This document shows, in pieces, positions 4,993-62,083 of a stretch of DNA of 62,368 nucleotides. Both the position numbers and the translations under genes were made by a program. Each line of letters opens with the position of its first letter. The stretch's first letter is position 1. This DNA is from a virus (lineage: Duplodnaviria > Caudoviricetes), in IMG/VR virus record IMGVR_UViG_3300042505_000324, positions 1-62,368 of that record; one strand, written 5' to 3'. The notes beneath the pieces were generated by a model. That model saw only the letters and a program-made list of their open reading frames with translations. It was not told the origin of the DNA and did not search any database.

Positions 4993-5010
4993 AGCTGGTT
5001 AAATTAAAGA
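4993..5010 (+). promoter_or_regulatory. putative phage-RNAP promoter, class B copy 1 (packaging/structural operon)
   Basis: AGCTGGTTAAATTAAAGA, identical 18-mer at 45572; 13-bp core also at 52079. Confidence 0.7.
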
Positions 5011-25807: not shown

Positions 25808-25823
25808 TTAAAGGGGCTAACTT

Positions 25824-26300
25824 ATGGCATTGACCAAAGGTACAAATGCTTATGTAACTGTAGCTGAGGCAGCTGCTTATATGGCAGACAAATTAGATAC
25901 AGCAGCATGGGTAGACGCTACACCAGAGGCACAAGCCCAAGCCATCGTGACAGCAACTAGAATTTTAGATGATCTGTCATGGACAGGACTTACCATAAGT
26001 GAAGCGCAACCACTAGCCTTCCCTAGACAAGGTGAATACTTTGACCCAAGACTTGGAAAATCAATAAGTCTACCGACTACAGTTCCTAATAGAATTACAC
26101 AAGCTTGTATCGAGCTAGCTTATCATCTTTTAAATAATGATGGTTTGTTAGACGATACTGGTTTGGTGAAAAATATTGGATTAGATGTTATTAATTTAAC
26201 TAATGTACGTAATGCTAATGTTTTACCAGCTAGCGTTAAACGGATGATAAAACCTTTACAAGTAAATCAAGGTGGTTCATTATGGTGGAGGGCTAATTAA
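25824..26300 (+). CDS. head-tail adaptor (DnaT-like family)
   Basis: NAYVTVAEA...ATRILD...QPLAFPR...ACIELA. Confidence 0.8.
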   Translation: MALTKGTNAYVTVAEAAAYMADKLDTAAWVDATPEAQAQAIVTATRILDDLSWTGLTISEAQPLAFPRQGEYFDPRLGKSISLPTTVPNRITQACIELAYHLLNNDGLLDDTGLVKNIGLDVINLTNVRNANVLPASVKRMIKPLQVNQGGSLWWRAN

Positions 26301-26301
26301 A

Positions 26302-26658
26302 ATGAGCCTTTCAGCTAAATTAAAAAGAGAAGTAAGAAATGCTATAAATAAATTAGGTGACTTAGCTATAACCGTAGTATTAAATAAAAAGAATGTTACG
26401 GATTATAACTTTACAACTAATGCAGTTACCGCTACTACATTGATTACCACAACAACTAAGGGTGTTCTTCTAGATGCACATCGTGCAAAAGGGACAGAAA
26501 ATCCTAGTGTAGGTAAAAGATTATTATTAAGCGTAGAAGATATTGAAGATCCAGATATCTATGATACTGTCACAATAGGAAGTGTAATTTGGAATATTGT
26601 GCCACCATATCAAAGTAATGGTTATACAATCACTTTAAACATTGTTAAGGAAGCATAA
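26302..26658 (+). CDS. head closure protein (putative)
   Basis: Size and position after the adaptor; start refined to 26302. Confidence 0.6.
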   Translation: MSLSAKLKREVRNAINKLGDLAITVVLNKKNVTDYNFTTNAVTATTLITTTTKGVLLDAHRAKGTENPSVGKRLLLSVEDIEDPDIYDTVTIGSVIWNIVPPYQSNGYTITLNIVKEA

Positions 26659-27059
26659 TGGGAAAACATACTAATATTAGTAATGATATATTCTCTATAT
26701 TTGCTTCATCAGCTTGGCAATTAGAGCTTGTTAAAACCTTTCCAGAAAACTTCACTCAAACTACTGGTTCTAAGGAATTTATTAGAGTCAGTATTATCTC
26801 TACAACTAATATAAATCAAACAGCTGTATCTGGTGTAATGCTTATAGATATTTTTATTGAAGCAGGGCTTGGTCCTAATAGAGCGAATATTATCGCAGAT
26901 AAATTAGATAAATATTTAGCTGGCAAGACAGTAACTACTATTACTAATTGTAATACACAGTTATTTTCCAGCACATTGGCTACGATAGGTGTCGATCCAG
27001 TGAACGCAAGTTTACAACGATACCGATATACAATACCTTTTAATTACTTTGGAGTTTAA
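26658..27059 (+). CDS. tail terminator protein (putative)
   Basis: FIRVSI...G.MLIDIF..AGLG....IADKL pattern; before the major tail gene. Confidence 0.7.
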   Translation: MGKHTNISNDIFSIFASSAWQLELVKTFPENFTQTTGSKEFIRVSIISTTNINQTAVSGVMLIDIFIEAGLGPNRANIIADKLDKYLAGKTVTTITNCNTQLFSSTLATIGVDPVNASLQRYRYTIPFNYFGV

Positions 27060-27065
27060 ACAAAT

Positions 27066-27656
27066 ATGGCACATATTACATCTATTGGCGCTGGTCTATT
27101 TTCAGACTTAGCCATTGCAGTTCCTTCATCAGCACCAACTTATTCAAGTCTAGATACAGCTGCAGAATTTGCTGCTTTATTTGCAACAGAAATTGAATCT
27201 ATTGGTGGTACTAAAGCTGCTAATACTTTCGTTCGTGTTAAGAACGTTCGTGAATTTCCAGCTATGGGTACACCAGCTAACGTTGTTAACGTTGCTGTTT
27301 ACGGTCAAAAGTCTTCACAACAAGTTCAAGGTCAATCTGATGCTCCATCTATGGAAATCACATTGAACTATGTTCCTGCTGATTGGGCTAAAGATTCTAC
27401 AAATATCTTAGGTTCTATGGTAGGCGACGGTAATCAATATGTTTTCCGTTTCTCACTATTGAATAGTGAGCCAACAGGTACTGGTGCTACAAAACATGCA
27501 ACCACTTCCGCAGGTGTTGGTACAGTAGCTAATAGTCTTTACTATTGGATTGGTAAAGTTGAAGCTCTTATGGTTAACCCACAATTGACTGATGCTAATA
27601 CTGCTACAATCACTATCACTGTACAATCATCATTCTATGGTGCTTATACAATCTAA
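27066..27656 (+). CDS. major tail tube protein
   Basis: VREFPAMGTPANVVNV...GQSDAPSMEITLNY; no sheath gene present. Confidence 0.85.
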   Translation: MAHITSIGAGLFSDLAIAVPSSAPTYSSLDTAAEFAALFATEIESIGGTKAANTFVRVKNVREFPAMGTPANVVNVAVYGQKSSQQVQGQSDAPSMEITLNYVPADWAKDSTNILGSMVGDGNQYVFRFSLLNSEPTGTGATKHATTSAGVGTVANSLYYWIGKVEALMVNPQLTDANTATITITVQSSFYGAYTI

Positions 27657-27740
27657 GTAACTTAACAAGGGGTACTGAGCTTGAAAGGCTCAATATTAAA
27701 CGACCATTATTTGACGTCCCTTCTTATTAAGAATAAAAAT

Positions 27741-27977
27741 ATGACAATAAAATTAGACAAACCATTCAGTCAATCTTATGTTCTTAGAACGACAGCTAAA
27801 CATATGCGTAAAAGCATTGATATTAGTATTCGTAAAACTTTTGAACGTATCAAAGATTTCGATGGTAATCAGGAAAAGTCGAAGGAAGTTTTCGAGACAT
27901 TAGCTAAGTTGCATTCACTTAGAAGTAAGATCGAAGATTTTCAATTACAACATCAAGAAAGTTTTAAAGGTAACTAA
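27741..27977 (+). CDS. hypothetical helical protein in the tail operon
   Basis: ORF track 27681..27977; ATG at 27741. Confidence 0.6.
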   Translation: MTIKLDKPFSQSYVLRTTAKHMRKSIDISIRKTFERIKDFDGNQEKSKEVFETLAKLHSLRSKIEDFQLQHQESFKGN

Positions 27978-28061
27978 TATGAGTATTATGTTAATCTGCT
28001 TTCTAATCAATTATCTTGGAGCGAAATAATGGCAACTCCAGCAATGAGTAAAGGAAATAAA

Positions 28062-28361
28062 ATGAGTATCAAAACACTAGTTGGTAAGAAAATTACTAAA
28101 ACAGTAAAATTCATGAATGAAGATGTTCAAATTAAAAAGTTAAATGTGGATGAGGTAATGGATATTCAAGCTAAGGCTAAGAATATTTCAGAAGACGATT
28201 CACAAGGTTTTGAAGTATTACGTCATGTAATTAAGGTAGCTGTAGAAGGTGCTGATGATCTTTCAGACCAAGATTTCAATGCATTCCCTATGGATGAGTT
28301 ATCTAAATTATCTAATGAGATTATGAAGTTCTCTGGATTAGGAAGTGAAGCGGGAAAGTAA
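28062..28361 (+). CDS. tail assembly chaperone (gpG-like)
   Basis: Position; ends in G GGA AAG TAA slippery site; start at the ATG after AAGGA. Confidence 0.85.
   Translation: MSIKTLVGKKITKTVKFMNEDVQIKKLNVDEVMDIQAKAKNISEDDSQGFEVLRHVIKVAVEGADDLSDQDFNAFPMDELSKLSNEIMKFSGLGSEAGK
28352..28358 (+). promoter_or_regulatory. -1 programmed ribosomal frameshift site GGGAAAG
   Basis: Same heptamer as lambda G-T; the -1 frame is open into 28394..28705. Confidence 0.9.
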
Positions 28362-28705
28362 CACTAACTGCTGAAGAAATAGAAGTATTCGAATTGGCAT
28401 TTCTACTTAGAACACCTGTATATCTACTTAAAGAAATGCCATACGATGAATATTTAAAATGGTCTATATATTTTTCTAAACGTCCTATTGGATGGAGAGA
28501 AGATGATAGAACTATGAAATTGCTTCAAGCACAGGGTGTTAAAGCTAAAGCGACAGATATCTTCCCATCATTAGATATATTGATTAATAGTGGTAGAGAG
28601 AAGTCGGTAGATGGCATGCTTAATATGCGTTCATTTAAGAAATCTACATTATTTAGTAAGTTATTAACTGCTAAAGGAGGGGACACCCTTGCCATTGAAG
28701 ATTAA
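28352..28705 (+). CDS. frameshifted extension of the tail chaperone (gpGT-like)
   Basis: -1 frame reads GKVTLTAEEIEVFELAFLL...MPYDEYLKWSIYF..RPIGWRED. Confidence 0.8.
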   Translation, partial: GKVTLTAEEIEVFELAFLLRTPVYLLKEMPYDEYLKWSIYFSKRPIGWREDDRTMKLLQAQGVKAKATDIFPSLDILINSGREKSVDGMLNMRSFKKSTLFSKLLTAKGGDTLAIED

Positions 28706-29030
28706 AACATTAAATGTTGATAGTGTAATAATAAGTATAAAAGAAAAACTAACGAAAGAAATTACCCGTAATAGTAAGATTATTACTGGTGATATTATCA
28801 ACGAATTAAAAGCTAATACACCTGTAGATACAGGTACGGCTAGAGATGGTTGGCATTTGAAGAATGATACAAGGAATTTGCATATTACGAATGATGTTCC
28901 TTATGTAAACATTCTAAATGGAGGGCATTCAGAACAAGCTCCAGTTAACTTTATAGAGAAGACGGTATTGTCTAATCGAAAAGTAAAGCCAAATGGAACT
29001 ATAGTTCAAATAACATACCCTAACAATTAA
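28689..29030 (+). CDS. HK97 gp10-like tail completion protein
   Basis: TPVDTGTARDGW...NDVPYV..LNGGHS.QAP motif. Confidence 0.8.
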   Translation: MPLKIKTLNVDSVIISIKEKLTKEITRNSKIITGDIINELKANTPVDTGTARDGWHLKNDTRNLHITNDVPYVNILNGGHSEQAPVNFIEKTVLSNRKVKPNGTIVQITYPNN

Positions 29031-29044
29031 TTTTGTTAGGGTTT
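29017..29044 (+). terminator. hairpin (weak terminator/attenuator) before the tape measure gene
   Basis: ACCCTAACAA / TTGTTAGGGT 10-bp stem with a short T tail. Confidence 0.5.
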
Positions 29045-29058
29045 AAATTGGAGATATT

Positions 29059-32000
29059 ATGTCTGGTATCATTATTGATGTAAAGGCTAACTCCGAACAA
29101 GCCAATAGAGATATAGGGAAATTAAATGATTCTCTCAGAAATATAGAGAAAACAACTTCTAGTATGTCAACAGGATTAAAAAGCTTAGCAGTAAGTTTTG
29201 GATCCGTGCTTGCTTCTGGATTAACTGTAAATTATTTAAAGAACGTAGCTGACACCTTCGTTGGAATAAACAATAAGATTAGATTAGTTACTGGAACTAC
29301 TAATCAATTAGTAACTGCGCAAAGAGAACTACTTAAAATATCTAATACTACTAGAAGTAGTTTAGAAGGTTCTGCAGCATTATTTAGTAAATTAGGCTTA
29401 GCATTACAAAAGAATGGTGCATCTGTTGGTAACGTATTAAAAGCTACTGAATCTATTCAGAAAGCTATTGCGTTATCAGGTGCCTCTGCCGATTCTGCTG
29501 CAGCAGCAGTGATACAATTGGGTCAAGGTTTATCATCTGGCACATTGCGTGGTGAAGAATTAAACTCTGTATTAGAACAAACGCCTCGTGTAGCTAAGGC
29601 TATTGCGGATGGATTAAAGATATCTACAGGTCAATTAAGATTATTAGCTGCAAATGGACAAATAACATCAGAAAAAGTATTTTCTGCTATTCTATCACAA
29701 TCTGAACAAATTAATAAAGAGTTTTCTACATTGACTCCAACCCTTTCACAAGGGATGACACAATTAGGTACAGCTACTAAAGTTTTTACAAACGAATTGA
29801 TGAAAGGTTTCAGTTCTGGTGGTGGTGGGTTAGCAACAGTATTCTCTAAACTTGCTGATAAGATATTAGTAGCATCAGATACTATTGCCAGTGATACTAC
29901 AATATTTTTGAATAAACTAAGAGCTGGTTTAAAAATAATTACTATCTTAGCAAATATTTCAGGTGGATTATTCAGTGCGGTAGGTTCACAATTCTTATCT
30001 GCATTACCTTCTATTAAGACTGTTAAAACATTAGCTAAAGATATAGTAAGTACATTTGAAACATTAACAGCCCCTATTACTAAAATATTTACAAATATTT
30101 TTAAAAGTATGGGTAATGCATTTGGCGATGTTTTTAATTTTGATACAGGTGTTGAGAAAGCACTATCAGAAATACGAAGAATAGAATTTGCATTTAATAT
30201 TACTACATTACTAAAATATCAAGTAGCTTTCCAACACTTATCTACAGCTATTAGGGAAAATAGTACTAGTATAGGTGCTTCCGTAAATAGATTTGTAAAT
30301 AGTTTATCTTCTGGATTTGATAGTGTATTACGATATGTAGGCATATTACCAGATACATTATTTACTTTTAGAGTAGGTGACATGGGACCAATGGTAAGTA
30401 CTATTGCCCAAGTATTAAGAAGTCTAACTGGTATTAAAGTAAAAATATGGGAAGTATCAACAATATTATCAGATGTATTTGGTAGCACATTTGCACCATT
30501 ACTTAATTTCCTATCAGATGTCTTGGATTTAACTACATCTAAATTAGGTAAAGCAGCTGATTATATAAAGAATTTTGCTAGTGATATCATCGAATACTTT
30601 AGAGACATTTATGATAAAGTTATTGGTCATTCTTGGTGGACAGATACTATAGATGGTATTGTTAATCAATCTGAAGGATTATTAGCAAGAGTTAAGAAAC
30701 CATTTGAAACATTTAAGAACTTTATATTTACATTATTTAAAGAAATAAATGGAACTAATTTATTAGATTCATTATCTAATGTAGCTTCTAATTTAACAGG
30801 TGGTAAATTATCATTTACTACTGATTTTAATTTTAAAGATAGTCTAAATACTATTAAGACAGAATTTCCAGAAGCATTTAAAACTGCGATATTAGCTTCT
30901 TCTGGATTAGTCGTTGCTATGTTATTTCCAGCTAATGCTATTAAAACAGCATTAATGACAGCTATTATGATTGCTCTAGCTACTACTGGCTCTCTAGCTG
31001 CTGAGCGTTTTGGTAGTGATTTATTTGGTGGTAGCTTTATTACTGATGCTGCTAATGGTATTGGTAAGGCGTTAGGATTTCTTGTAGCGGATTTTATCAG
31101 AAATATCCCCCAATTATTAAATGCACTATTAGGAATAGTGAACGGATTCGTACAGGGTTTTCTATCAGAAATGCCACTGTTATTCGGGACAATATTTAAA
31201 GGTTTATTCTCGATAGCTAATTTCTTAGGATTAGCTGGACCAATGGGTATTTTAGGGTCTATATTATTTGGTGTAGGTGTTTCAAAATTATTAGGTAATT
31301 TCGATACAATCAAAACTGCTTCTACTAAATTAGTGGCAATATATAGTAGTCTTTCAGCATTTGTAAAAGGTGAAGGCGGACTAATATCACAAGGATTATT
31401 TGGATTAACTGGTGGTCCAGTAAGAACATTATCTGGATTAGGTTTAATCTTATCCTCACTAGGTACTTTTGATGGATTATTTGCTAACTCAGAATTAGCA
31501 CATTTAGCTTTAAATGGTGGATTATTATATTTAAGTTTGTTTGGACAAAGAGGTTTAGAAACGATTATTTCTAAAGGTAAAAGTACAATAGCAAGCATAA
31601 CTACAAATTTAAGAGATAGTATGTCTTCATTGGCAGGTACTAGTAGTTCAATGAATCTGTTATACACTTTAATATTTGGAACAGAACAAACAAGGGGTGT
31701 ATTGTTCACTTCTATAAAAGATAGCTTAGCTTCTAAACTTAGCGAATTATATAGTTTTACGGCTAAATTACTTGTTAACTTAACCAGTAAAAGTGTAGAT
31801 GTAATGTCTACATTACTATTTGGCACCGATAAGGAAGCCGTCTATAAAACAATAAAAGATAAGCTTAATACTTTAATCTCATTTATATCAGCACAACTTA
31901 GCACATTTAAGAATAATATCGCTAAGAATGCCAAAATGAGTGCTTTTGATACATTATTTAGGATGCCAAATGTCAAAAATACTGCAAATGATTTAGATAC

Positions 32001-44935: not shown

Positions 44936-45475
44936 ATGTTTAATTATTATAAACCAGAAAAATTAGGTTTACATTTAGAGATACCGAAAACTGATGACGA
45001 CTTGCAATTCATAGCGATGTTATATGCTAGAGAAAATCCAATTGGTATGATACCTATAGATTCTCAGAAGTGCCTAATAGAGTTTAGAAAAGCATTAAGC
45101 TCTGGTTCTTATGTAAGATTAATAAAATTTAATAATGAGATACATGGTTTTATTGCTGGTATGCAAATAAGTACTATGCATTCATCAGAGAAAACTGTGC
45201 AACAAATGTATTATTTCTGCAGATTAGAAGGTATGTTAGCCTTTAGAGCTGTTGTACTTGCTCACGAAGGTTTGATAAAATATGCAGAAGGTCTTAAGGC
45301 AAAGTACGTAATGTCTACTTGTAGTCAACTCTATAAAAATGATAATCTATGTCGTATTTTAAAATTACAAGGGTGGTCGCAATTTGGGTATGTTGCACTT
45401 TGGAACACTTCGCACCATAACTCACCATCTCAGACACCGAGCCGTGAGCATAGTCAAAAGTTAAAATCAGTTTGA
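44936..45475 (+). CDS. GNAT-fold-like protein (putative acyltransferase)
   Basis: IHGFIAG strand, LIKYAEGLKAKYV helix-strand, RILKLQGW end; canonical acetyl-CoA loop absent. Confidence 0.5.
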   Translation: MFNYYKPEKLGLHLEIPKTDDDLQFIAMLYARENPIGMIPIDSQKCLIEFRKALSSGSYVRLIKFNNEIHGFIAGMQISTMHSSEKTVQQMYYFCRLEGMLAFRAVVLAHEGLIKYAEGLKAKYVMSTCSQLYKNDNLCRILKLQGWSQFGYVALWNTSHHNSPSQTPSREHSQKLKSV

Positions 45476-45571
45476 TACCTCACTATCAACCCGCCTAAAA
45501 TTTTTGGTCTTATCTTTGTGTTCTTTCTATAATTAAAAACCATAGGAGGAACACTCGTTAAGCCTTGAAAT

Positions 45572-45589
45572 AGCTGGTTAAATTAAAGA
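45572..45589 (+). promoter_or_regulatory. putative phage-RNAP promoter, class B copy 2 (lysis operon)
   Basis: Exact 18-bp match to 4993..5010. Confidence 0.7.
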
Positions 45590-45705
45590 TTCAAGCCATT
45601 TTCCCCAGTATTATATCTAGAATAAGCTAGAGGGAGACACTAGTAGCTAGCGTGGAACTTTAAGGATGTAGTTAATCTAATATAATCATATCATAAAGGA
45701 ATAGA

Positions 45706-46218
45706 ATGTTACCATTATTAATACCTATTTTATCATCACTAGCCAGCAATGGTTTAAACACTTTAGTAAATGCAATAACAATTAAAGGCAAGGAAATCGT
45801 AGAAGACAAATTAGGAATCAAAATCCCTAATGATGTTAACGATTTAACACCTGAATTATTATCTCAACTTAAAATGAAAGAAATGGAACATGAATCCGAT
45901 CTCTTGGCTATGGCTCTCGAACAAAAGAAACTTGAAATCGAATCAAAAAGAATCGACGCAGATAGTGAAAAAGCAGCCTCAGAAGCAGTGACTGCTAGAT
46001 GGTTAGGTGATATGACTTCAGATTCTTGGTTATCTAAGAATATTCGTCCTATGACTTTGATTTTTATTTTAACTGTATATACTATATTCTCATTGTTAAG
46101 TGCAGCACATATTGATGTGAATGTTGAATATGTCAAATTATTAGCACAATGGGGTATGATTGTTATGTCAGCATACTTTGTAGGAAGAACAGTTGAGAAA
46201 ATTAAGGGAGTAGAATAA
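45706..46218 (+). CDS. holin (GTA/3TM holin-like)
   Basis: DMTSDSWLSKNIRP...TM segments...YFVGRTVEK; coupled to the endolysin. Confidence 0.8.
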   Translation: MLPLLIPILSSLASNGLNTLVNAITIKGKEIVEDKLGIKIPNDVNDLTPELLSQLKMKEMEHESDLLAMALEQKKLEIESKRIDADSEKAASEAVTARWLGDMTSDSWLSKNIRPMTLIFILTVYTIFSLLSAAHIDVNVEYVKLLAQWGMIVMSAYFVGRTVEKIKGVE

Positions 46219-46559
46219 TGAGCCCTTTGATTGAAAATCAACAAGCATTTCTTTTAGACTTCTGTAAGCTTATTGAATTTGCGGTTAGTAAAGGTTTCAC
46301 TGTAACAGCTGGTGAACTCTTAAGAACACCCGAACAGCAAAAGATTTATGTAGATACTGGTCGTAGTAAGACTATGAATAGTAATCATATTAAGAAATTA
46401 GCTGGAGACTTGAATTTCTTTAAAGACGGTCAATATGTTTGTGATAAAAATGTATTAGCACCTCTTGGGGATTTCTGGGAGAAATTAAATGTAAGGAATA
46501 AATGGGGCGGACACTTTAATAATTTTAAAGATATGCCACATTTCGAACGTAATATGTAG
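46218..46559 (+). CDS. endolysin, M15 family peptidase
   Basis: RTPEQQ, SKTMNSNH...AGD, WGG.F...DMPHFE. Confidence 0.9.
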   Translation: MSPLIENQQAFLLDFCKLIEFAVSKGFTVTAGELLRTPEQQKIYVDTGRSKTMNSNHIKKLAGDLNFFKDGQYVCDKNVLAPLGDFWEKLNVRNKWGGHFNNFKDMPHFERNM

Positions 46560-46564
46560 TATGT

Positions 46565-46602
46565 AGCCCTGATATATCATAACTGATATGTTAGGGCTTT
46601 TT
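46565..46602 (+). terminator. intrinsic terminator after the lysis cassette
   Basis: 15-bp stem (2 G-U pairs) AGCCCTGATATATCA / TGATATGTTAGGGCT plus T tail. Confidence 0.8.
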
Positions 46603-46678
46603 AATCGGAAACTTATGATAGATTATTTATTGTGTTATAAAGAAGCATTCTTATATGGGATGGTTTTTGGTTTAATAA

Positions 46679-46710
46679 TTGCGGAAATTAGGGTATCTTA
46701 TATGAAGAAC
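46679..46710 (+). promoter_or_regulatory. putative phage-RNAP promoter, class A copy 1 (early)
   Basis: TTGCGGAAAttagGGTATCTTATATGAAGAAC; matches 48509..48540 except in the 4-nt spacer. Confidence 0.7.
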
Positions 46711-46743
46711 TAAAATATTCTTAATTCAATTAACGGGGATTTT

Positions 46744-47052
46744 ATGATTTACAAAATAGAGGATAAAGAGTACAATGTTAAAATAGTAACAGAACATTAC
46801 ATGACAGATAATAGCCCTGCTCTCTCGTTATATTCTAATGATGAACAAGGTTATTATATGCCATTCTTAAGAATAAGTGTTAGACATGCTATAAGACCTG
46901 CCGAAGGTTGTATTTGGGTTAAGGATTATAGCGAGAATGAAGGTATGTGTAAGTGGTTAGAAGAAAATAATATTGCAGAAGTAACTGGTGTAAAACTCGC
47001 TACGGGGTTCGTAGAATTAATAGAAATGAGATTAAAAGGAGAAATAGAATGA
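46744..47052 (+). CDS. early hypothetical protein (DUF4313-like)
   Basis: VKDYSENEGM..WLEENNIAEVTG motif. Confidence 0.55.
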   Translation: MIYKIEDKEYNVKIVTEHYMTDNSPALSLYSNDEQGYYMPFLRISVRHAIRPAEGCIWVKDYSENEGMCKWLEENNIAEVTGVKLATGFVELIEMRLKGEIE

Positions 47053-47177
47053 AAGACTTTGTACAAATAGTTGAGGAATTAACTATGGGAACACTAATGG
47101 AACAACCTGAAATAGTGGATGAACCAGAGCATTATTCAGAGGAATCTGAAACAACTTTTGAAGAGACGGATGTCTAA
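47049..47177 (+). CDS. very acidic 42-aa early peptide
   Basis: Hand-translated; 14 D/E versus 1 K; AGGAG SD; ATGA overlap. Confidence 0.55.
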   Translation: MKDFVQIVEELTMGTLMEQPEIVDEPEHYSEESETTFEETDV

Positions 47178-47321
47178 GGAGAATTAAAATGATTGATTAT
47201 AAAGATCGAGGATTAGCAACAGAATATGAACCCTCACTTACTATCAAAGCGGGTTGGGTTGTATTATTGGGTATTTCTTTTAGTTTGTTCGTAGTTTATT
47301 TATTTAGTTAAGGGGATTAAA

Positions 47322-47603
47322 ATGACAGCTGTAAAAGCAACAAAGACGCCACCTATGAAGTTAAAAATAGCAGAGCTTGAACAGAAGATTTTTAATTTAA
47401 ACACAAGTTTAGAGTTAGAACGTCAGGACTACTCTGTACTAGAGAGCGAGTTAATGAAATCTACTTTAGAGATCGCTATGTTAAATAAGGAAATCACTAG
47501 ACTCTACTCTCTTAATAAAGCTTTAACATTCTCATTAACTGAAGCTTTAATCCCTGAATCTACATTTACTGCGTTTGTAAAAAGATTGGTAGGGTTAAAA
47601 TAA
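47322..47603 (+). CDS. coiled-coil hypothetical protein
   Basis: ORF track. Confidence 0.6.
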   Translation: MTAVKATKTPPMKLKIAELEQKIFNLNTSLELERQDYSVLESELMKSTLEIAMLNKEITRLYSLNKALTFSLTEALIPESTFTAFVKRLVGLK

Positions 47604-48004
47604 TGACAACTACTCGTAAACGTAATAACTTATCTGCAGATGAAGTACACTCTATTAAACGTTTAATAAAAGAAGGTGTCTCAGATTTTGAGATAGCTGA
47701 ACAATTAAGCGTTCATAAGAGTACTATTTATTCTATAAGATCTGGTAAAATTTGGAAAGATGATTTACATTATAGAAATTCAAAAGATAAAAGTTTTCAT
47801 CCCGAAAACTATCCTGATTCTCTAAAGTTTAAATTCGGAATTCCATTAGCGATTGCGAGTAGTCCAATTAAAGGGCGTACATATGAAATGCAGCATAGAA
47901 AAGAAGTACCTCATAAAACAGTGGTAAGTATTGGTAGTAGCTTTAATACATTGGGTTTTGTTAGTGGTGGTTCACACACCTCTGGAGCTCATTTGTTTAA
48001 TTAA
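47603..48004 (+). CDS. helix-turn-helix DNA-binding protein
   Basis: LSADEVHSIK...SDFEIAEQLSVHKSTIYSIRSGKIW. Confidence 0.75.
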   Translation: MTTTRKRNNLSADEVHSIKRLIKEGVSDFEIAEQLSVHKSTIYSIRSGKIWKDDLHYRNSKDKSFHPENYPDSLKFKFGIPLAIASSPIKGRTYEMQHRKEVPHKTVVSIGSSFNTLGFVSGGSHTSGAHLFN

Positions 48005-48012
48005 GGAGAATT

Positions 48013-48549
48013 ATGCAAATTTCTTTATCAAAACGAAGTCTTGTAATATTAATGTTATTAACTACGTTAATTTTTACGAAATCAACAAAAGATAATGAAG
48101 CGTTTAAAAAACATAATCTAGTAAATAAAGTATCGAAGATAAGTTTAACAAGAAGGGAGTTTAATTGTTTAGTAAAAAATATGTATCATGAAGCAAGAGG
48201 CGAAAGTAAATTAGGTATAGCTTTAGTTGGTCAAGTTACGTTAAATAGAGCGATTAGTTCTAAAAGGGATCTTTGTGATGTTGTATATGAACCTTCACAA
48301 TTTTCTTGGACACTTGAAAAGCCTAAAGAAATTTCTAATGAACAATTAATTATCGTAAATGAAGTAGGTCAGGCTCTGATTCGAAGAGAGTTTGACATAC
48401 CACATCGCTTTTTACACGTTAAATATTTTTATAATCAATTTAAAATACGTGCGCCAATATGGACACGCAAATTAGACGTAGTAGGAAGTGAAGGAAATCA
48501 TATTTTTCTTGCGGAAAAAGAGGTATCTTATATGAAGAACAAGCAATAA
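48013..48549 (+). CDS. SleB/Hydrolase_2 cell-wall hydrolase with N-terminal signal/anchor
   Basis: CLVKNMYHEARGE...VTLNR...CDVVY..SQFSW...GNHIF. Confidence 0.9.
   Translation: MQISLSKRSLVILMLLTTLIFTKSTKDNEAFKKHNLVNKVSKISLTRREFNCLVKNMYHEARGESKLGIALVGQVTLNRAISSKRDLCDVVYEPSQFSWTLEKPKEISNEQLIIVNEVGQALIRREFDIPHRFLHVKYFYNQFKIRAPIWTRKLDVVGSEGNHIFLAEKEVSYMKNKQ
48509..48540 (+). promoter_or_regulatory. putative phage-RNAP promoter, class A copy 2 (early)
   Basis: TTGCGGAAAaagaGGTATCTTATATGAAGAAC; overlaps the end of the hydrolase gene. Confidence 0.7.
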
Positions 48550-48585
48550 CGTTCTTATAGTAATCTAACCAATAGGAGATTTAAA

Positions 48586-48858
48586 ATGTTCAACTTTGTT
48601 ACAAAAACAGGTAGTATAGCACTTTCAATTTTTAAATTCGCAATTTCATCTTTAGTGTGGATTGCATTATGGGTAACCATTACGGCAACAAGTTTTCTAG
48701 GTATATATTTTGTTAGTAGCGCAGCTATGGTAGTGTTTTCTATTGTAGCAGCTATTGCAGGTATTATGTTTGTTGTATGGTTTATTAGTTTCGTTTGGAA
48801 AGTTATCCGTTTCTTTTATCCAAAGGAAGAGACACCAAATGAGCCAATTAGTTCTTAA
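48586..48858 (+). CDS. hydrophobic membrane protein
   Basis: Almost entirely TM; AGGAG SD. Confidence 0.65.
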   Translation: MFNFVTKTGSIALSIFKFAISSLVWIALWVTITATSFLGIYFVSSAAMVVFSIVAAIAGIMFVVWFISFVWKVIRFFYPKEETPNEPISS

Positions 48859-49123
48859 ATGTTTTATATCTAAGGCTAAAGAACCTAAACTCGCTTATAA
48901 CGAGAATTCTTTTACCTTAGATAATTCTTTTGTTTTCACAGTAAGAGAATTTGATTTGCAGAAACTCTTTATATCTGAAATAAAAAAAGTTAAAGGTTCT
49001 ATATTTAATCCAATTTGGGTTAGAGCTATTTTTATAATAGACAGTATAGACCCTACTCCATTTTTTGTAGAAGAAAAATATATTGGTAGTCTTCAAACCA
49101 AATTATTAAGATTTTATCCTTAA
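48839..49123 (+). CDS. hypothetical protein
   Basis: ORF track 48755..49123; ATG at 48839. Confidence 0.5.
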   Translation: MSQLVLKCFISKAKEPKLAYNENSFTLDNSFVFTVREFDLQKLFISEIKKVKGSIFNPIWVRAIFIIDSIDPTPFFVEEKYIGSLQTKLLRFYP

Positions 49124-49127
49124 CACC

Positions 49128-49204
<77 letters not shown>

Positions 49205-49367
49205 CAATAATAAGAAGGTTTGCAATGAATACTGAAGCAACTCACGTTATAATCATAATGTTATTACTTTTAATATTTACTAAGTTATCTTTTGATGCTA
49301 TTATCTTAGGAACTATTTGTATTTACTTGGCACAATTAAAATGGTCGACATAATATTATTGATTATT

Positions 49368-49376
49368 TGTTATAAT
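49368..49376 (+). promoter_or_regulatory. possible sigma70 extended -10 (TGnTATAAT) upstream of the second RNAP gene
   Basis: TGTTATAAT about 40 nt before the ATG; AT-rich context weakens the call. Confidence 0.35.
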
Positions 49377-49414
49377 ATAATTAAACATATTCCAAAACAT
49401 CTTTAAGGTTTATA

Positions 49415-51670
49415 ATGAATTTAACGAGACAAAAAATAGTTGATTCAATAAATAGTAGAATGGATACTGAACTCTCAGCACAGAATCCAGTTAAGATCTT
49501 AAAAACAACCCCGATAGATATCCTCGTAGACACTACCATAAGTGTTACATATCTGTATACTCGAAATTCTAAAAAGAAATCTATACTTCTTTCTGAAGTG
49601 ATTTCAGCTATAGGGCATGGTGTACGTAATAAACAAGAGATTAAAAGAGACTCATCTCTTGCAGCAAAGACAGGTGCATTTCTTTTAAATACATTAGATA
49701 TATTAGGTTTAATATCTGTACAATTAGGTCAAAGTTCGAATGGACATGCTACCTATATCATAACAGTATTAAACGAAGAAGCATTAAGTAGTTTATGGCT
49801 TCAAATACCTATTGAACATACTGAGAAATTACCATCTTTAACTCCGTACGATGATTGGACTTCTACCCAACATTCTACAGGTGTTATGTTAGTTAAAACT
49901 GCTAATAGAGATGTATTAGCTACACTAAAACCTGAAACGCATCCGATAGTATTTAACGTAGTAAATAGAGCACAAAAAGTGGGATGGACAATAGATACAG
50001 ATATCTATGAACTACAAGCTTGGGCATTACGTAATAAAACTGATGCATTCTCTGAAATTTGGGCAATGCAAAATCCACAAGCTAAAATATCTAAAGTGCG
50101 AGAAGCAAAAGCCATTGGCGATATAGCTCGTAGGTTTTTAGATAAAACATTTTATCATTTATATTATTTAGATTTTAGAGGAAGAAAGTATGTAGCTACA
50201 GCATATCTACACGAACAAGGGTGTGATTTGTCTAAAGGTTTATTAAGACGTAAAGACCGTAAAAAGATAACCGAACAAGGTTTCTTTTGGTTAATGGTTG
50301 CTATTGCAAACACTTGGGCAGGTAGTGCAGGTAGAGAAGATGAAGCAAAAACAGATAAAATACCTTTAAATGACAGAGTATATTGGGCGTTGGATAATGA
50401 AGAGATATTATTATCCTATGCAGAGAATCCTAAAGTAAATGTAGGTTGGATGAAAGCAGATAAACCGTGGCAATTTATATCAGCTTGTTTCGAACTAAAA
50501 CGATTTAGAGATTGGCAAAAATTATGCAGTAGATTAATTCAAGAAGAAGAAATTCTTGAATATGATTATCTAACTAATTTTGAAGCTTATATTGATGGCA
50601 GTACTAATGGCAGTCAGCATCTTTCTGCATTAACTAAAGATGAAATAACTGCACCATTAGTTAATTTAGTTCCACTAGACTTGCCAGGTGATCTATATAC
50701 ATATGTAGGCGATCATGTATGGGAAAGTTTAGAGAAACTTAAAAATAACCTTACTAAAGAAGAAATCCTAGATTGTGAAGCAGTAATTGAAATTATCACA
50801 ATGATGAAACAAGACATACAAAAAGCAGAACTTAAAAGTGAGCTTAGAAAGAATCTTATAGAAGCTTTGCGTATGTTTAGAAACGAGAATTTAGAAGTGA
50901 TAAAAAAGGCAGCTGTAGTATTTTGGTTAAGAATTACAGATGCGAAACACAAACGTAAAATTTGTAAAAGAAACACGATGACTATTGCATATGGTGCTAG
51001 TGCATATGGAATGGGTTCACAGCAAGCGGAAGATGCACGTAAACATGGTATTGATCAATTAACTGCAATCGAAACACAATGGGCTACTTTTATGGGTAGA
51101 GCGGTATACGATGATTGTAAGATTAGTTTAAAAAGACCAATGAGATTACTTAGTGTATTTGAAGAAGCAGGTAGAGCAGCTGAAGATAAAGAAGAGTTTT
51201 TATCTTGGACTGTTCCTATTACTAACTTTCCAGCTGTGCAACATTATACAGAAGGTAAGGTTAAAAAGATATGGGTGCAATATGGCGCACCCGTTGGTAA
51301 AAGATTGTCGACTGGTAGATATGAAAATACTTATCAATTAGCAATTTGTCATATAGAGGAGCCGATTTATTCCAAGAGGAAACAAGCACAAGGTGCAAGT
51401 CCAAACGCAATTCATAGTTTAGACGCAGCTCATCTAATGCTAACCGTTAATAAAGCAGAATTTCCTATAACTACTATACATGATTCGTTTGGTGCATTAT
51501 TACCAGACTTACCAGAACTGTTTATTCTAATTAGAGAAACATTTGTAGAATTATATGAAGCAGATCCGTTAATTAAATTGATGGAAGATATTAATGGTGA
51601 TATAAGCCAAGTGGAGATTGGTAATTTGGATATTAAAAATATCTTAGACAGTGAATACGCATTTGCGTGA
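49415..51670 (+). CDS. T7-type single-subunit DNA-directed RNA polymerase (751 aa)
   Basis: LDFRGRKY, DKPWQF, motif A IDGSTNGSQH, motif B RKICKRNTMTIAYG, PNAIHSLDA, motif C IHDSFG. Confidence 0.95.
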   Translation: MNLTRQKIVDSINSRMDTELSAQNPVKILKTTPIDILVDTTISVTYLYTRNSKKKSILLSEVISAIGHGVRNKQEIKRDSSLAAKTGAFLLNTLDILGLISVQLGQSSNGHATYIITVLNEEALSSLWLQIPIEHTEKLPSLTPYDDWTSTQHSTGVMLVKTANRDVLATLKPETHPIVFNVVNRAQKVGWTIDTDIYELQAWALRNKTDAFSEIWAMQNPQAKISKVREAKAIGDIARRFLDKTFYHLYYLDFRGRKYVATAYLHEQGCDLSKGLLRRKDRKKITEQGFFWLMVAIANTWAGSAGREDEAKTDKIPLNDRVYWALDNEEILLSYAENPKVNVGWMKADKPWQFISACFELKRFRDWQKLCSRLIQEEEILEYDYLTNFEAYIDGSTNGSQHLSALTKDEITAPLVNLVPLDLPGDLYTYVGDHVWESLEKLKNNLTKEEILDCEAVIEIITMMKQDIQKAELKSELRKNLIEALRMFRNENLEVIKKAAVVFWLRITDAKHKRKICKRNTMTIAYGASAYGMGSQQAEDARKHGIDQLTAIETQWATFMGRAVYDDCKISLKRPMRLLSVFEEAGRAAEDKEEFLSWTVPITNFPAVQHYTEGKVKKIWVQYGAPVGKRLSTGRYENTYQLAICHIEEPIYSKRKQAQGASPNAIHSLDAAHLMLTVNKAEFPITTIHDSFGALLPDLPELFILIRETFVELYEADPLIKLMEDINGDISQVEIGNLDIKNILDSEYAFA

Positions 51671-52076: not shown

Positions 52077-52091
52077 AACTGGTTAAATTAA
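52077..52091 (+). promoter_or_regulatory. putative phage-RNAP promoter, class B copy 3 (replication operon)
   Basis: AaCTGGTTAAATTAA shares the 13-bp core with 4993 and 45572; intergenic. Confidence 0.6.
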
Positions 52092-52143
52092 CCCTAAATC
52101 GCAAATGTAATTTAGGAACTCAAAAATCCAAAAGGAACTTAAA

Positions 52144-52761
52144 ATGGCATTATTAGAAAACGTTGAAATATATTTCGTTAAATTAGAACAAGACCGTCCC
52201 TCTGCTCGTTTCAATAAACTGAATCCTACATGGGAAGTACAAATGCGTACTAGCGACCCTGTACAAATGCAGGAGTGGAAACAATTAAATTTAGCACCTA
52301 AATTAGTGGTACATCCAGATGACCATGAAAATGCTGGTGAAGCAATCTTAACACCAGAAGGTAATAAACAATGGCGTTGTAACTTACGTAAACGTTCCAT
52401 TGATAGTAAAGGACGACCAGCCGATGCACCAACATTAGTAGATGGTAATTTGCAACCAGTAGATCCTCGTACTGTAGGAAATGGTTCTGTAGCTAATATT
52501 CAGATTTATCAATTTGAATATCCAGATCCAAACGGTAAAGGTACAAAAATTGGTACACAAATGCAAGCTGTACAATTACTTAAACATATGGTATATTTAC
52601 AGCAAAATGATGGTGGTTTTACTAAAACACAAACAGAAGTAATTACACCTGCTGCAACTAGCAATAACGGTGATGCAGATAATGATTACGATAATGGTGA
52701 TGACGAAGGTAATTTCTCGGCAACACCTGCTTTAAAACCTAAAGCTAAATCAGTATTCTAA
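52144..52761 (+). CDS. single-stranded DNA-binding protein (T7 gp2.5-like)
   Basis: VGNGSVANI...AVQLLK; acidic tail; C-terminal Phe. Confidence 0.8.
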   Translation: MALLENVEIYFVKLEQDRPSARFNKLNPTWEVQMRTSDPVQMQEWKQLNLAPKLVVHPDDHENAGEAILTPEGNKQWRCNLRKRSIDSKGRPADAPTLVDGNLQPVDPRTVGNGSVANIQIYQFEYPDPNGKGTKIGTQMQAVQLLKHMVYLQQNDGGFTKTQTEVITPAATSNNGDADNDYDNGDDEGNFSATPALKPKAKSVF

Positions 52762-56541: not shown

Positions 56542-56814
56542 ATGATGTCTACAATTTGGGAGAGAATACCAGTGAGTGATAAAGATCCAATAGAGCATTT
56601 AAGAGAATATTATAAAGAAACGTTTAAATTAGATTCATCTTCCTTTACTGTAGATACACATATCTCGGAAACAGGAATAGATTCTTTAGAAGCTTATAAT
56701 TTATTATATGAATTAGAAAATACATATAGTATTAGGTTTGATAGTCACTTCTTGCCAATAACTCTAGGAGATCTCTTAGTTGAGGTGAATAGGTTAAAGA
56801 ATGCTAAAATCTAA
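56542..56814 (+). CDS. acyl carrier protein-like
   Basis: GIDSL phosphopantetheine motif, ELENTYSI, TLGDL; ACP size. Confidence 0.75.
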   Translation: MMSTIWERIPVSDKDPIEHLREYYKETFKLDSSSFTVDTHISETGIDSLEAYNLLYELENTYSIRFDSHFLPITLGDLLVEVNRLKNAKI

Positions 56815-57346
56815 AGTTCCAGCATTTACAATGCCTAAAAAAGAAGCTAAAGTAAAAGTCTCTTTAGAAGGTATTGTTGGTGGAAGAGTTAAAGCCTCAA
56901 ACTATACAGGTAATGGACATTGGCACGCTGATTGGTTAATGGGTGGTGCTGACAAAGTTGGTTTTGTATATATTATTCGTAATAATTTAACAGGAAGATG
57001 TTACATAGGTAAGAAGTCATATAGAGGTAGTGGTAAATTAAATAAAGGTACTAAAAGTAACTGGGCTTGGTATATTTCTTCATCTGTAGATTTATCAGCA
57101 GATATTAAATTAATAGGTAAAGATAATTTCGAGTTTATTTGTTTAGAAGAATACTCATATAAAGGTTCTTTATCATGGGCGGAGACATGGAGTATCTGTT
57201 ACGTAGAAGCACCTTCAAACCAACATATGTGGTATAATCGTCAAGTAAACCAAGTAGGTTGGATTGTGAAAGAACCAGTCACTATTAGACATAAAGAAAA
57301 TTTAGCAGCATTGATAAGGAGATATTTGGATGAAAAAAGTAGTTAG
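56801..57346 (+). CDS. GIY-YIG endonuclease
   Basis: GFVYIIRN...YIGKK...W..Y.SSS...E...YN. Confidence 0.85.
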   Translation: MLKSKVPAFTMPKKEAKVKVSLEGIVGGRVKASNYTGNGHWHADWLMGGADKVGFVYIIRNNLTGRCYIGKKSYRGSGKLNKGTKSNWAWYISSSVDLSADIKLIGKDNFEFICLEEYSYKGSLSWAETWSICYVEAPSNQHMWYNRQVNQVGWIVKEPVTIRHKENLAALIRRYLDEKSS

Positions 57347-59129: not shown

Positions 59130-60369
59130 ATGGATAATAATAAGAAACACAAAGGTGTCACGTTCAATAAGACAAGAAACAAATGGACAGCTTCAATTCG
59201 TATTGATGGTATACAACATCATATTGGATATTACGACGAAGAGGCAGATGCTATTACGGCTCACAAATTAGTTTCTGATAGATTATTAGGTATAAATCAA
59301 CCTGTAGCAGAACCAGTAATTCCTGTATCAGATATAAAAGAAGATGATATAGAGACACCATGGTCTACAGTAGGTTATTTAACTTATAAACGAACATATT
59401 CTAGAAAGTTAGATGAAACAGACGTTAATAGTGAAACTGAAGAATTTCCAGAAACAGTCGAGCGGATTATTGAAGCATGTAGTACACAATTAAAAGTAGG
59501 TTTCACACCTGAAGAAGAACGTAGATTAAGAACATATTTATTGAAATTAAAAGGTTCTGTAGCTGGTAGATTCTGGTGGCAATTAGGTACTAAAACTGTA
59601 GATAAGTTAGGTTTAGCATCTTTACAGAATTGTGCATTTACAGTAGTAGATGGACCAATCGTTCCATTTACATGGGCTATGGATATGTTAGCACTTGGTT
59701 CAGGTGTTGGCTATAATATACAGAGAGAACATGTTGAAAAATTACCAGTCGTACGAGAATGGTTTACGGCTCCTACAAGAGTTAGTGACTCGGGAGCAGA
59801 CTTTATTATCCCAGATTCAAGAGAAGGATGGGTTCGATTCCTCGCAAAAACTCTTAAAGCAGCTTTTCTTAGTGAGCGAAAGGAAAAGGGGACTTTTACA
59901 TACAGTACGCAAGCGATTAGAGGAAAGGGGACGCCAATCAAAGGGTTTGGAGGAACAGCTTCTGGTCCAGAGGAACTATGTTGGGGAATAGAACAGATAA
60001 GTCAAATCTTAATTAAACGTAGTGGTAAGAAGATTAGACCAATTGATGCATTAGATATTATGAATATTATTGGATATATCATTGTAGCTGGTAATGTGCG
60101 ACGTTCTGCACAAATAGCTATTGGAGACCCTGATGATGTCGAATATTTATTATCAAAAAGATGGGATATGGGTACAATACCTTCTTGGCGTGCAATGTCA
60201 AACAACTCAGTAGTGTGTGAAAATATTTCAGACCTACATGAATACTTTTGGCAAGGTTATGAAGGTAAGGGCGAACCATTTGGTTTGATCAATTTAAAAT
60301 TATCTCGTGAAGTTGGACGATTAGGTGACTATAATTATCCAGATCCAGGCGTCATGGGCTACAATCCGT
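59130..60369 (+). CDS. nrdJ: class II (AdoCbl) ribonucleotide reductase, exon 1, with N-terminal AP2 domain
   Basis: TYKRTY, AGRFWW, NCAF, VAGNVRRSAQI; ends GYNP plus the T of the Cys codon. Confidence 0.9.
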
Positions 60370-61193
60370 TAAAGCTAGCGGCTTAATACAGTAATGTATT
60401 TCGAATTAAATTATCTAAAAACAGGGAATATCCATATTGGACAATCCTGTGCTAACTCGTTATGAGGAGTGCAACGACTATGATTAAAGATTTAAATAAA
60501 CGTTTATATTACTTTGCAATGTTTGACGGCTGTTTGCAGAGGAAAGAAAATGGAGATGCTAACCTTATTGTAAATATGTTAGAAATAAATAAAGACTATT
60601 TAGAGAAAGTGATTAGTACATTAGAAGAAATACCTTTGGGCTATACTTTAACAGAGCCTGCCATTTATACAAAAGATGGTTTTAATAGAAAACAACAATT
60701 AAGATTACAAACAAAAGTACATCCGATTCTGACTAAAATACATGAAAGAATGTATTTAGATGGTCATAAAGTCTTAGACCCACATATGCTAACTCTGCTA
60801 GATGCTGAAGCTTTAGCCATTGCATTTATGGCAGATGGGAGTAGATATGTGGATAAAAGATGGAGTAATGCTTCGCCTAAGTATCGATTACATACTAATA
60901 ATATTAGTTATGGCGATAATTGGCTTTTTAAGAAAGCATTAAAAGAAACTTTTGATTTAGAATTTAATATTGTTAAAAAAGGTATGAAGTATGAATTAGG
61001 TCTTCGACAAAAAGATAATATACTTTTTGAAGTAACTATAGAAGATTTTATACTACCTTCATTTAAATACAAAATCGGACGATAATCCCCATATAAATAT
61101 GGGTGGTGATATAGTCTGTTCTATATAGTAATATATAGAGGTTAGCAGAAATGTCTAACCCCTTATTCTATGAGAGTAAGAGTAACAATTAAG
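60370..61193 (+). mobile_element. group I self-splicing intron (824 nt)
   Basis: Exon ends in U pairing with IGS GCGG (P1); P3 TTATC/GATAA; P7 GACTA/TAGTC within GATATAGTC; terminal G; splicing restores NPCAE. Confidence 0.92.
60480..61085 (+). CDS. intron-encoded double-motif LAGLIDADG homing endonuclease
   Basis: YYFAMFDGCL and LAIAFMADGS motifs; GAGGAG SD before ATG 60480. Confidence 0.85.
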   Translation: MIKDLNKRLYYFAMFDGCLQRKENGDANLIVNMLEINKDYLEKVISTLEEIPLGYTLTEPAIYTKDGFNRKQQLRLQTKVHPILTKIHERMYLDGHKVLDPHMLTLLDAEALAIAFMADGSRYVDKRWSNASPKYRLHTNNISYGDNWLFKKALKETFDLEFNIVKKGMKYELGLRQKDNILFEVTIEDFILPSFKYKIGR

Positions 61194-62083
61194 GTGCCGA
61201 GCAATCTTTAGATCCATATGAGACTTGTTGTCTAGCTGAAATCTTTTTACCTAATATTACTAGCAAAGAAGAGTTCTTAGACGTAATTACACTGCTTTAT
61301 CGTATTTGTAAACATTCATTAACTTTACCATCACATCATCCTGAGACAGAAGCAATTGTTCATAAGAATATGAGAATGGGGTTAGGTTTAACTGGTGTAT
61401 TACAAGCTACGGAAGAGCAGAAATCTTGGGCAAATGAAGGATATTTACATGTACGCGATTTTGATAAACGCTATTCTGAACTTAATAATTTTAATAAGTC
61501 TATTAAACTTACTACGGTCAAACCGTCTGGGACATTATCATTACTACCTGGTGTTACGCCTGGCGTTCACCCTGGTTATGCTCAGTATATGTTTAGACGG
61601 ATACGTATTGCTGCAGGGCACCCTTTAATTGAAGTCTGTAGAGCTCATGGCTATCCAATTGAGTATCAACAAAACTTTGATGGTTCTGAAGATTATAATA
61701 CAATGGTAGTAACATTTCCATTTAGCTATCCTGAAGGTACTAAACTTGCTAGCCAAATGACAGCATTATCACAGTTGGAAGAAGTTAAGAAATTACAAAA
61801 GAATTGGTCTGATAACTCTGTATCTTGTACAGTATACTATCGTAAGGAAGAATTGCCAGAAATTCGTGCATACTTAGAACGTAACTATAGAGATAATCAT
61901 AAATCATTATCTTTCTTATTACATAGTGAGCATGGATTTAAACAAGCCCCATATGAAGAAGTTACTAAAGAACAGTTTGATGAATTAATGGCTAAAACAA
62001 CGGTAATTACTAAATTAGAAAATATTAAATTAGACTTAGATGCGAGTGACGAGTGTACATCTGGTGCTTGCCCTATTAGATAA
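61194..62083 (+). CDS. nrdJ: class II ribonucleotide reductase, exon 2
   Basis: (C)AEQSLDPYETCCLAEIFL, TTVKPSGTLS, SDNSVSCTV, QAPYEE, C-terminal CTSGACPIR; spliced product 709 aa. Confidence 0.92.

Follow-up and report, generated by a model that had tools for sequence, protein, structure and literature searches.

In coliphage N4 (Schitoviridae), a packaged single-subunit RNA polymerase transcribes the early genes, among which a second phage polymerase is encoded (PMC5512222). The N4 virion polymerase, gp50, acts on hairpin early promoters and is followed by RNAPII and then by the host polymerase. In Thermus phage P23-45, the gene for a second polymerase, which is not part of the virion, is reported to be transcribed by a virion polymerase (PMC10770324). 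Here we describe a 62,368-nucleotide stretch of a tailed virus (Duplodnaviria; Caudoviricetes; IMG/VR virus record IMGVR_UViG_3300042505_000324), hereafter the window, which encodes a free T7-like RNA polymerase (RNAP2) and a second RNA polymerase fused to a MuF head domain, and which carries two classes of repeated motif, class A and class B. Class A is very probably the promoter of a phage-encoded polymerase. We assign it to the MuF-fused enzyme with a probability of roughly 0.55, on grounds of gene order, exclusion and analogy.

As in N4, the putative early promoters of the window phage are few and another phage polymerase is encoded with the early genes; packaging of the first enzyme is proposed here. 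It is unlike N4 in that no conserved DNA hairpin was found at class A, in that the carrier domain is MuF and not the gp50 architecture, in being long-tailed (it encodes a tape measure protein), and in having no evident host-polymerase late stage. With P23-45 it shares a long tail and, as proposed for the window phage, a polymerase fused to a virion protein and serving the earliest genes, the gene of a second polymerase among them; the P23-45 enzymes are reported to be homologous to cellular multisubunit polymerases, with the virion enzyme fused to the tape measure protein (PMC10770324), whereas the window enzyme is T7-type and MuF-fused. Phages DSS3_VP1 and DSS3_PM1 (Naomviridae) resemble the window phage in both polymerases, in gene order and in having two motif classes in corresponding places.

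Class A occurs twice in the window

Class A comprises an upstream box and a core, four nucleotides (nt) apart, and reads TTGCGGAAA-TTAG-GGTATCTTATATGAAGAAC at 46679–46710 (copy 1) and TTGCGGAAA-AAGA-GGTATCTTATATGAAGAAC at 48509–48540 (copy 2). A repeat finder reports the two copies as a 32-nt direct repeat of 88% identity. Their parts, and the hairpin that precedes copy 1, are as follows.

46679–46687, + strand: upstream box of copy 1, TTGCGGAAA, at -25 to -17 if +1 is G46704; the box is conserved family-wide
46692–46705, + strand: core of copy 1, GGTATCTTATATGA, with its putative start at G46704
48509–48517, + strand: upstream box of copy 2, TTGCGGAAA
48522–48535, + strand: core of copy 2, GGTATCTTATATGA, with its putative start at G48534, within the 3' end of open reading frame (ORF) 48013–48549
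46565–46598, + strand: terminator-like hairpin with a T-run, called by a terminator scan, closing the holin/endolysin unit just 5' of copy 1

When both strands of the window were searched with the 19-mer that begins at the core, allowing up to three mismatches, it matched at 46692 and 48522 only, both times on the + strand; over 100 shuffles the mean was 0.01 matches, and no shuffle (0/100) reached two. The repeat is real and far beyond chance, and the two occurrences listed in a preliminary description of this DNA, at 46679 and 48509, are confirmed. Weaker extra copies were sought in the window with the 12-mer TCTTATATGAAG at up to three mismatches, which gave 116 matches against 130.6 expected, and with the core at up to one mismatch, which returned the two class A copies and no further ones. 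The sole exact match to the 19-mer in IMG/VR (L001) was treated as chance: it has no box, overlaps a gene start and is unlike class A in the flanks shown.

The two copies differ in their immediate setting. Copy 1 is intergenic, lying 80 nt 3' of the terminator-like hairpin and 40 nt 5' of the ATG at 46744, and copy 2 falls within the last 14 codons of ORF 48013–48549, 52 nt 5' of the ATG at 48586.

Class A is a conserved bipartite element

Relatives were found on IMG/VR stretches, 184 for the MuF-fused polymerase and 70 for the free one, and all fetched loci were scanned with the 13-nt core at up to one mismatch, positions -11 to +2 thus being the criterion of selection. The scan returned 102 matches on the + strand and 10 on the - strand, which collapse to 80 distinct contexts. 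All 73 distinct + strand contexts lie on the coding strand; the seven - strand near-matches represent one homologous coding site in MuF-polymerase loci and have no box.

The family consensus is TGCG(G/C)AAAAA-N2-R-GTATCTTATATGA. Upstream of the selected core, T-24 is found in 54 of the 73 copies, G-23 in 72, C-22 in 71 and G-21 in 72, with the GCG complete in 69; position -20 is G or C in 63; and an A-rich stretch follows, with A in 47–68 sites at each position from -19 to -15 and A-18 and A-17 each present in 68. Positions -14 and -13 vary and -12 is a purine in 72 of 73; within the core used for selection, ATAT and then G are invariant, and conservation ends after A+2. Because the box is conserved, -14 and -13 are variable and conservation stops at A+2, we take the element to be about 26 nt long. 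The earlier proposal of a bipartite element reaching about -25 therefore stands to about -24.

In L082, the closest relative found, two copies occupy the same two positions: the first is intergenic, and the second falls within the end of the relative's own hydrolase gene (38% protein identity). L082 also has a third, weaker copy. In three relatives that are 98–100% complete, 4, 3 and 3 copies are present, and every one is forward.

In layout, class A is like the promoters of T7/T3/SP6-type phages (Autographiviridae): a nearly invariant block abuts the putative start, an A/T-rich stretch lies upstream (in T7 promoters at about -17 to -13), and a TA-rich -4 to -1 is followed by G. The copies are likewise co-oriented with the genes, the phage encodes a polymerase of the cognate type (with two candidates), and 5' stem-loops are frequent in the leaders, as in the T7 phi10 leader. 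Class A is unlike this group in its extra GCG box at -23 to -21, its span of about 26 nt and the end of its conservation at +2, in the presence of only 2–4 copies per genome, and in being almost invariant across phages whose proteins at the same loci, polymerases included, are 43–67% identical, whereas T7-group promoters diverge together with their polymerases.

The likeness to SP6 raised in the preliminary description survives for the general layout. It is presumably confined to the TATA-like bases before the G, plus GAAG in the window, and the -12 to -5 block does not appear to match the SP6, T3 or T7 sequence; class A was not filed as SP6-type. GAAG itself is no conserved feature, since the family varies after +2 (GAAG in the window, GATA in many relatives). 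Class A is best explained as a phage-specific T7-type promoter in which the A-rich -19 to -15 is followed by a specificity block, RGTATCTT, at -12 to -5 and by ATAT at -4 to -1, with the GCG box at -23 to -21 serving as an upstream extension and transcription starting at G46704 and G48534.

Leader hairpins and the predicted start site

Stretches complementary to AAGAA(C), noted earlier after both copies, are indeed present, with AAGAA at 46705–46709 facing TTCTT at 46718–46722 in leader 1 and AAGAAC at 48535–48540 facing GTTCTT at 48551–48556 in leader 2.

46705–46722, + strand: weak 5-bp hairpin AAGAA/TTCTT of leader 1 (-1.5 kcal/mol in a 32-nt folding window, no better than shuffles)
48535–48556, + strand: 6-bp hairpin AAGAAC/GTTCTT of leader 2 (-4.1 kcal/mol in a 32-nt folding window)

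Leader 1 folds at -1.5 kcal/mol (z +0.35), with 119 of 200 shuffles equal or better, and leader 2, taken over its whole 52 nt, at -6.5 kcal/mol (z -1.94), with 9 of 200. Across the family, 24 of 73 folding windows of 28 nt that start at the G reach at least -4 kcal/mol in stability, and pairing begins at +1 or +2 in 19 of these 24. When the start is moved one base past the G, 13 of 73 remain, and control folding windows at +29 and +33 give 9 and 8; the mean fold z is -1.25 from the G compared with -0.07 and -0.08 in the controls. The stems are unlike in sequence (GATAGC.., GATAAC.., GAAGAG.., GGTATA.., GAATAGGA..) and therefore look like separate solutions. No 5' leader hairpin formed on folding the class A copies of L082.

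This pattern supports a 5' end at or within 1–2 nt of the G (G46704, G48534) and so lends indirect support to the +1 proposed earlier. The companion suggestion, that transcripts begin with a hairpin, applies to about a third of the family copies; a 5'-terminal hairpin is common in the family and not obligatory, being weak in the window and absent from L082.

The virion-polymerase promoters of N4 contain a hairpin with a 5–7-bp stem and a 3-nt loop. At the two class A copies, folds of -30 to +3 yielded A/T stems only, at -1.2 and -3.3 kcal/mol (z -0.81 and -2.36), and around the box 52 of the 73 family sites are without a stem of 4 bp or more, leaving 21 that have even a 4-bp A/T stem.

The same positions bear on whether class A is instead a promoter of the host RNA polymerase, used under the main sigma factor or by a phage-modified form of the enzyme, through a -10-like TATATG/TATAAT without a -35 element, which we consider improbable. 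The idea draws on the alternative reading TTGCGG...TATGAA in the preliminary description and on the DSS3_VP1 variant, which has a perfect TATAAT. Among sigma-70 -35/-10 hexamers spaced 16–18 nt apart in 45400–49500, relaxed scanning gave 20 sites, at the chance level of 19.2, and neither class A copy is one of them, which favours the T7-type element over a sigma-70 promoter, as first suggested. In TTGCGG the first T varies across the family (of 73 copies, 31 have T at -25, 21 have C and 20 have A), and 14 nearly invariant bases spanning the 'spacer' are unlike host promoters. The leader hairpins start immediately 3' of TATAT, but from a -10 element the RNA would be expected to start several bases further on. 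Class A is also kept between lake phages of 34–42% G+C and a roseophage stretch of 48% G+C.

Class A precedes hypervariable genes upstream of RNAP2

All long ORFs of the window lie on the + strand, and the two class A copies are followed by short groups of genes.

46744–48549, + strand: genes behind copy 1, namely a DUF4313 protein, small ORFs, a helix-turn-helix (HTH) protein (47603–48004) and a SleB-like hydrolase (48013–48549)
48586–49123, + strand: genes behind copy 2, two overlapping ORFs of unknown function

One to three class A copies lie 700–5449 nt 5' of the free polymerase gene in 35 of 45 RNAP2 loci, one of which has an additional copy 3' of that gene. Nine of the 10 loci that lack a copy have less than 1.3 kb of upstream DNA, and the tenth (L146) has three copies with two core mismatches. 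A Shine-Dalgarno sequence and an ORF start occur within 200 nt downstream of 67 of the 73 family copies, with a median leader of 39 nt; the other six, as with copy 2 of the window, overlap the 3' end of a long open frame. The strict co-orientation and short leaders fit a promoter.

Homologues of the nine ORFs in 46744–49353 were found in 0–8 of 55 RNAP2 loci (L104–L158) each, the HTH protein in three; an ORF near the free polymerase, at 52144–52761, has homologues in 52 of the 55. The genes behind class A are thus hypervariable among relatives, and conserved promoters heading fast-changing small genes are the usual look of phage early regions. Class A heads short units of these fast-changing, probably early genes just 5' of the free polymerase gene.

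It is very unlikely that class A is some other kind of conserved site, such as an operator of the HTH protein, a recombination hot spot bounding the cassettes, or a ribosome-binding site with a mini-ORF (ATG AAG AAC TAA). We rejected the HTH protein as reader of the box on the contrast between its homologues, in 3 of 55 RNAP2 loci, and the intact GCG in 69 of 73 sites. The ribosome-site reading takes some support from the GG-N8-ATG within the motif and from the overlap of the exact 19-mer in L001 with a real gene start; it was nonetheless set aside, as the 'mini-ORF' runs from 3 to 12 or more codons, copy 2 holds in-frame coding sequence there, and the invariant TATCTTAT and the box are left unexplained. 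For a recombination site speaks one contig from an RNA run (X5), which joins 48004 to 48510 with 4 other letters between, its right edge falling at the box (only one contig, at depth 2, whose shorter side has 29 letters). The join skips the SleB-like hydrolase gene, so a relative seems to be without that gene, and it is only a hint of cassette exchange at the promoter. A cassette boundary is in any case compatible with a promoter role.

Class B and the order of genes

The second motif class occurs at three sites of the window, which border other modules.

4994–5009, + strand: class B, GCTGGTTAAATTAAAG, after a T-run hairpin and 5' of the structural module
45573–45588, + strand: class B, GCTGGTTAAATTAAAG, 5' of holin/endolysin
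52078–52093, + strand: class B variant, ACTGGTTAAATTAACC, 408 nt after the RNAP2 stop and in the same position in relatives

Weaker class B matches occur in the window at 21152 and 62279. Relatives carry CCCGTTAAATTAACCC four to five times per genome on the + strand. In 38 of 45 loci a class B match follows the free polymerase gene at a distance of 341–3732 nt, and in 18 of 45 another one precedes the class A copies. The usual order, complete in 18 of the 45 loci, is class B, lysis, class A, variable genes, class A, variable genes, free polymerase, class B, replication. In the window, the lysis genes are a holin and an M15 endolysin at 45706–46559, ahead of the hairpin at 46565–46598, and the genes 3' of the free polymerase include a family A DNA polymerase, a 5'-3' exonuclease, a primase-helicase and a ribonucleotide reductase. 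The gene content, with a terminase-like protein and a 2530-aa tape measure protein, is that of a long-tailed phage.

This gene order therefore places the free polymerase gene in a class A-led unit, followed by class B. Such an arrangement is expected if the reader of class A precedes the free polymerase and the free polymerase reads class B, and the free T7-like polymerase is the probable reader of class B.

Two phage polymerases and the probable reader of class A

49415–51670, + strand: free T7-like RNA polymerase, RNAP2, 751 aa (PF00940, E 4.5e-59; T7 RNA polymerase, E 4e-40)
19344–23828, + strand: MuF-fused RNA polymerase, 1494 aa (Phage_Mu_F, E 5.6e-14; RNA_pol, E 4.1e-11), candidate reader of class A

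RNAP2 aligns with T7 RNA polymerase at DGS..G.QH, at IHDSFG and at the C-terminal YAFA, and by these features is a canonical T7-type enzyme. The MuF-fused polymerase, which is very divergent, has its MuF head domain near the N terminus and the RNA_pol domain in its C-terminal third. LEQDASSSGAQII, NMV.FYGAG and HDAFF are invariant in all 12 of 12 homologues, and from their position and form they may be read as polymerase motifs A, B and C. Seven contigs are present in both polymerase locus tables, and the two genes share one phylogeny.

We assign class A to the MuF-fused polymerase because the packaged enzyme reads the earliest promoters in known phages (N4, P23-45). The preliminary description had named the same reader, perhaps acting through the extra domains of the large enzyme; gene order, exclusion and analogy leave the MuF-fused polymerase the most likely one. 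This polymerase would travel in the capsid, reach the cell together with the DNA and act first, at the few class A promoters; RNAP2 would take over at the class B promoters, which are more numerous and precede the replication, structural and lysis genes. More broadly, the chances seem evenly divided that a large group of long-tailed lake phages and the cultured Naomviridae share a host-independent relay of two T7-type polymerases, in which an injected MuF-polymerase acts on a long bipartite promoter that has stayed almost invariant despite divergence of the polymerases to about 45–65% identity and that borders freely exchanged early-gene cassettes.

The two assignments could also be exchanged, with RNAP2 reading class A and the MuF-fused enzyme or another factor reading class B, which we regard as unlikely. 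RNAP2 is the canonical T7-type enzyme and the layout of class A is T7-type; a class A unit reading into the RNAP2 gene would give positive feedback, and the sigma-70-like site directly 5' of that gene could supply the first molecules. RNAP2 would then serve only 2–4 promoters before about 2.5 kb of variable small genes, however, and the injected enzyme would at once fire the promoters of structural and lysis genes. In DSS3_VP1 it is the many-copy class, with 11 members, that is most SP6/T3-like. In the known two-polymerase phages N4 and P23-45, the virion enzyme is reported to read the few earliest promoters.

Several points weigh against our assignment of class A to the MuF-fused polymerase and against the relay built on it. 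A phmmer search with the C-terminal 795 aa of the MuF-polymerase found no match among solved structures (PDB), and a profile of 12 MuF-polymerase sequences reached only E 0.004–0.006 to T7 RNA polymerase and N4 RNAPII. Packaging and injection of the enzyme are predicted from its MuF domain. All relatives examined carry both polymerases, so that nature offers no knock-out; the pelagiphage Kolga, with neither motif, is too distant to decide the matter or to serve as one. The family copies are related by descent, and the counts given above are not independent events. Finally, two features lie between copy 2 and the RNAP2 gene.

49152–49199, + strand: imperfect hairpin leading into about 30 T; it separates the class A units from the free polymerase gene and is absent from the calls of the terminator scan
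49327–49354: sigma-70-like TTGGCA-16-CATAAT, 5' of RNAP2

A hairpin-like sequence with its T-run thus separates copy 2 from RNAP2, and together with the sigma-70-like site it means that RNAP2 is possibly transcribed by the host, as the T7 polymerase gene is, which weakens the argument for a relay.

Hairpin-like sequences with long T-runs also recur at module borders, at 4923–4962 (about 20 T) as well as 49152–49199 (about 30 T), and T-runs of this kind are present at 36829 and 62261 of a relative (G002); such sequences may terminate transcription by the phage polymerases. Sequence reads seem cut at 49156–49218. In the partial GenBank record of EBPR siphovirus 1 (L194), a relative that has no bearing on the class A finding, the MuF-polymerase frame at 25771–31144 is annotated in two parts around an HNH endonuclease gene.

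DSS3_VP1 and other relatives

The cultured roseophage DSS3_VP1 (L195/L198) has both polymerases, at 27% and 32% identity, in the same gene order. It carries three copies of GCATCTATAATGA, a recognisable variant of the class A core, at 35809, 36256 and 67793, two of them 6 kb 5' of the free polymerase gene. It is unlike the window in this core and in its upstream stretch, GTGAGAAAA, which differs from the window box and is absent from one of the three copies. A further 11 copies of the T7/SP6-like ATAGGGTGCGTTAAAGA, ATAGG(G/T)T(G/A)CGTTAAAGA, are spread genome-wide, one place being before the portal gene, and resemble SP6/T3-type promoters. Several of the DSS3_VP1 sites are followed by G-rich hairpins. 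Genes for dU-DNA like those of DSS3_VP1 were sought in part of the replication arm of the window, and none was found among the 10 ORFs scanned.

Kolga encodes a MuF protein of 633 aa besides a free polymerase, and its sequence contains no class A-like site better than 11/13 and no repeated non-coding motif. The complete relative G003 (74,179 nt) has a 126-nt terminal direct repeat. It also appears as a contig (L197) binned into a Gammaproteobacteria metagenome-assembled genome, either a weak hint of the host or a binning artefact.

RNA libraries and literature

Near-identical DNA occurs in lake-water runs, with shares of 0.98 (X1), 0.41 (X2) and 0.33 (X3), X1 being a possible source of the window; shares below 0.2 were not used for habitat. 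Contigs of four RNA libraries from three studies are 90–99% alike to parts of 46727–48961 and to sequence from 49415 on, examples being record 9 of X4 (46768–47842) and record 17 of X5 (46727–46889). These are Logan contigs, which cannot show starts, ends, strand or level and may include carried-over DNA, and at most they show that relatives occur in RNA libraries. No RNA contig among the matches listed covers 46479–46726, a gap that is no evidence.

A full-text literature search for the 13-nt core gave no match. Searches for MuF with a single-subunit virion polymerase, for a siphovirus virion polymerase, for Naomviridae RNA polymerase and for two-polymerase phages, with subscription journals outside their coverage, returned no description of the system. 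In term searches of two papers on DSS3_VP1, 'RNA polymerase' was absent and 'promoter' appeared once, in an unrelated context.

As a phage-polymerase promoter class A would be ordinary; its length, box, invariance and likely reader are what is unusual. If the assignment holds, class A would be the first promoter for a MuF-fused virion polymerase and, with it, one phage would supply a second orthogonal T7-type polymerase/promoter pair, a useful transcription part. The nearly invariant 26-nt signal would also mark the earliest genes in related uncultured phages, candidates for host take-over and anti-defence, and DSS3_VP1 on its roseobacter host offers a ready cultured model for the relay.

Two further ORFs were noticed in the window: a LAGLIDADG homing-endonuclease ORF at 60462–61085, which apparently splits the class II ribonucleotide reductase gene (59130–62083), and a GIY-YIG SegE-like ORF at 56801–57346.

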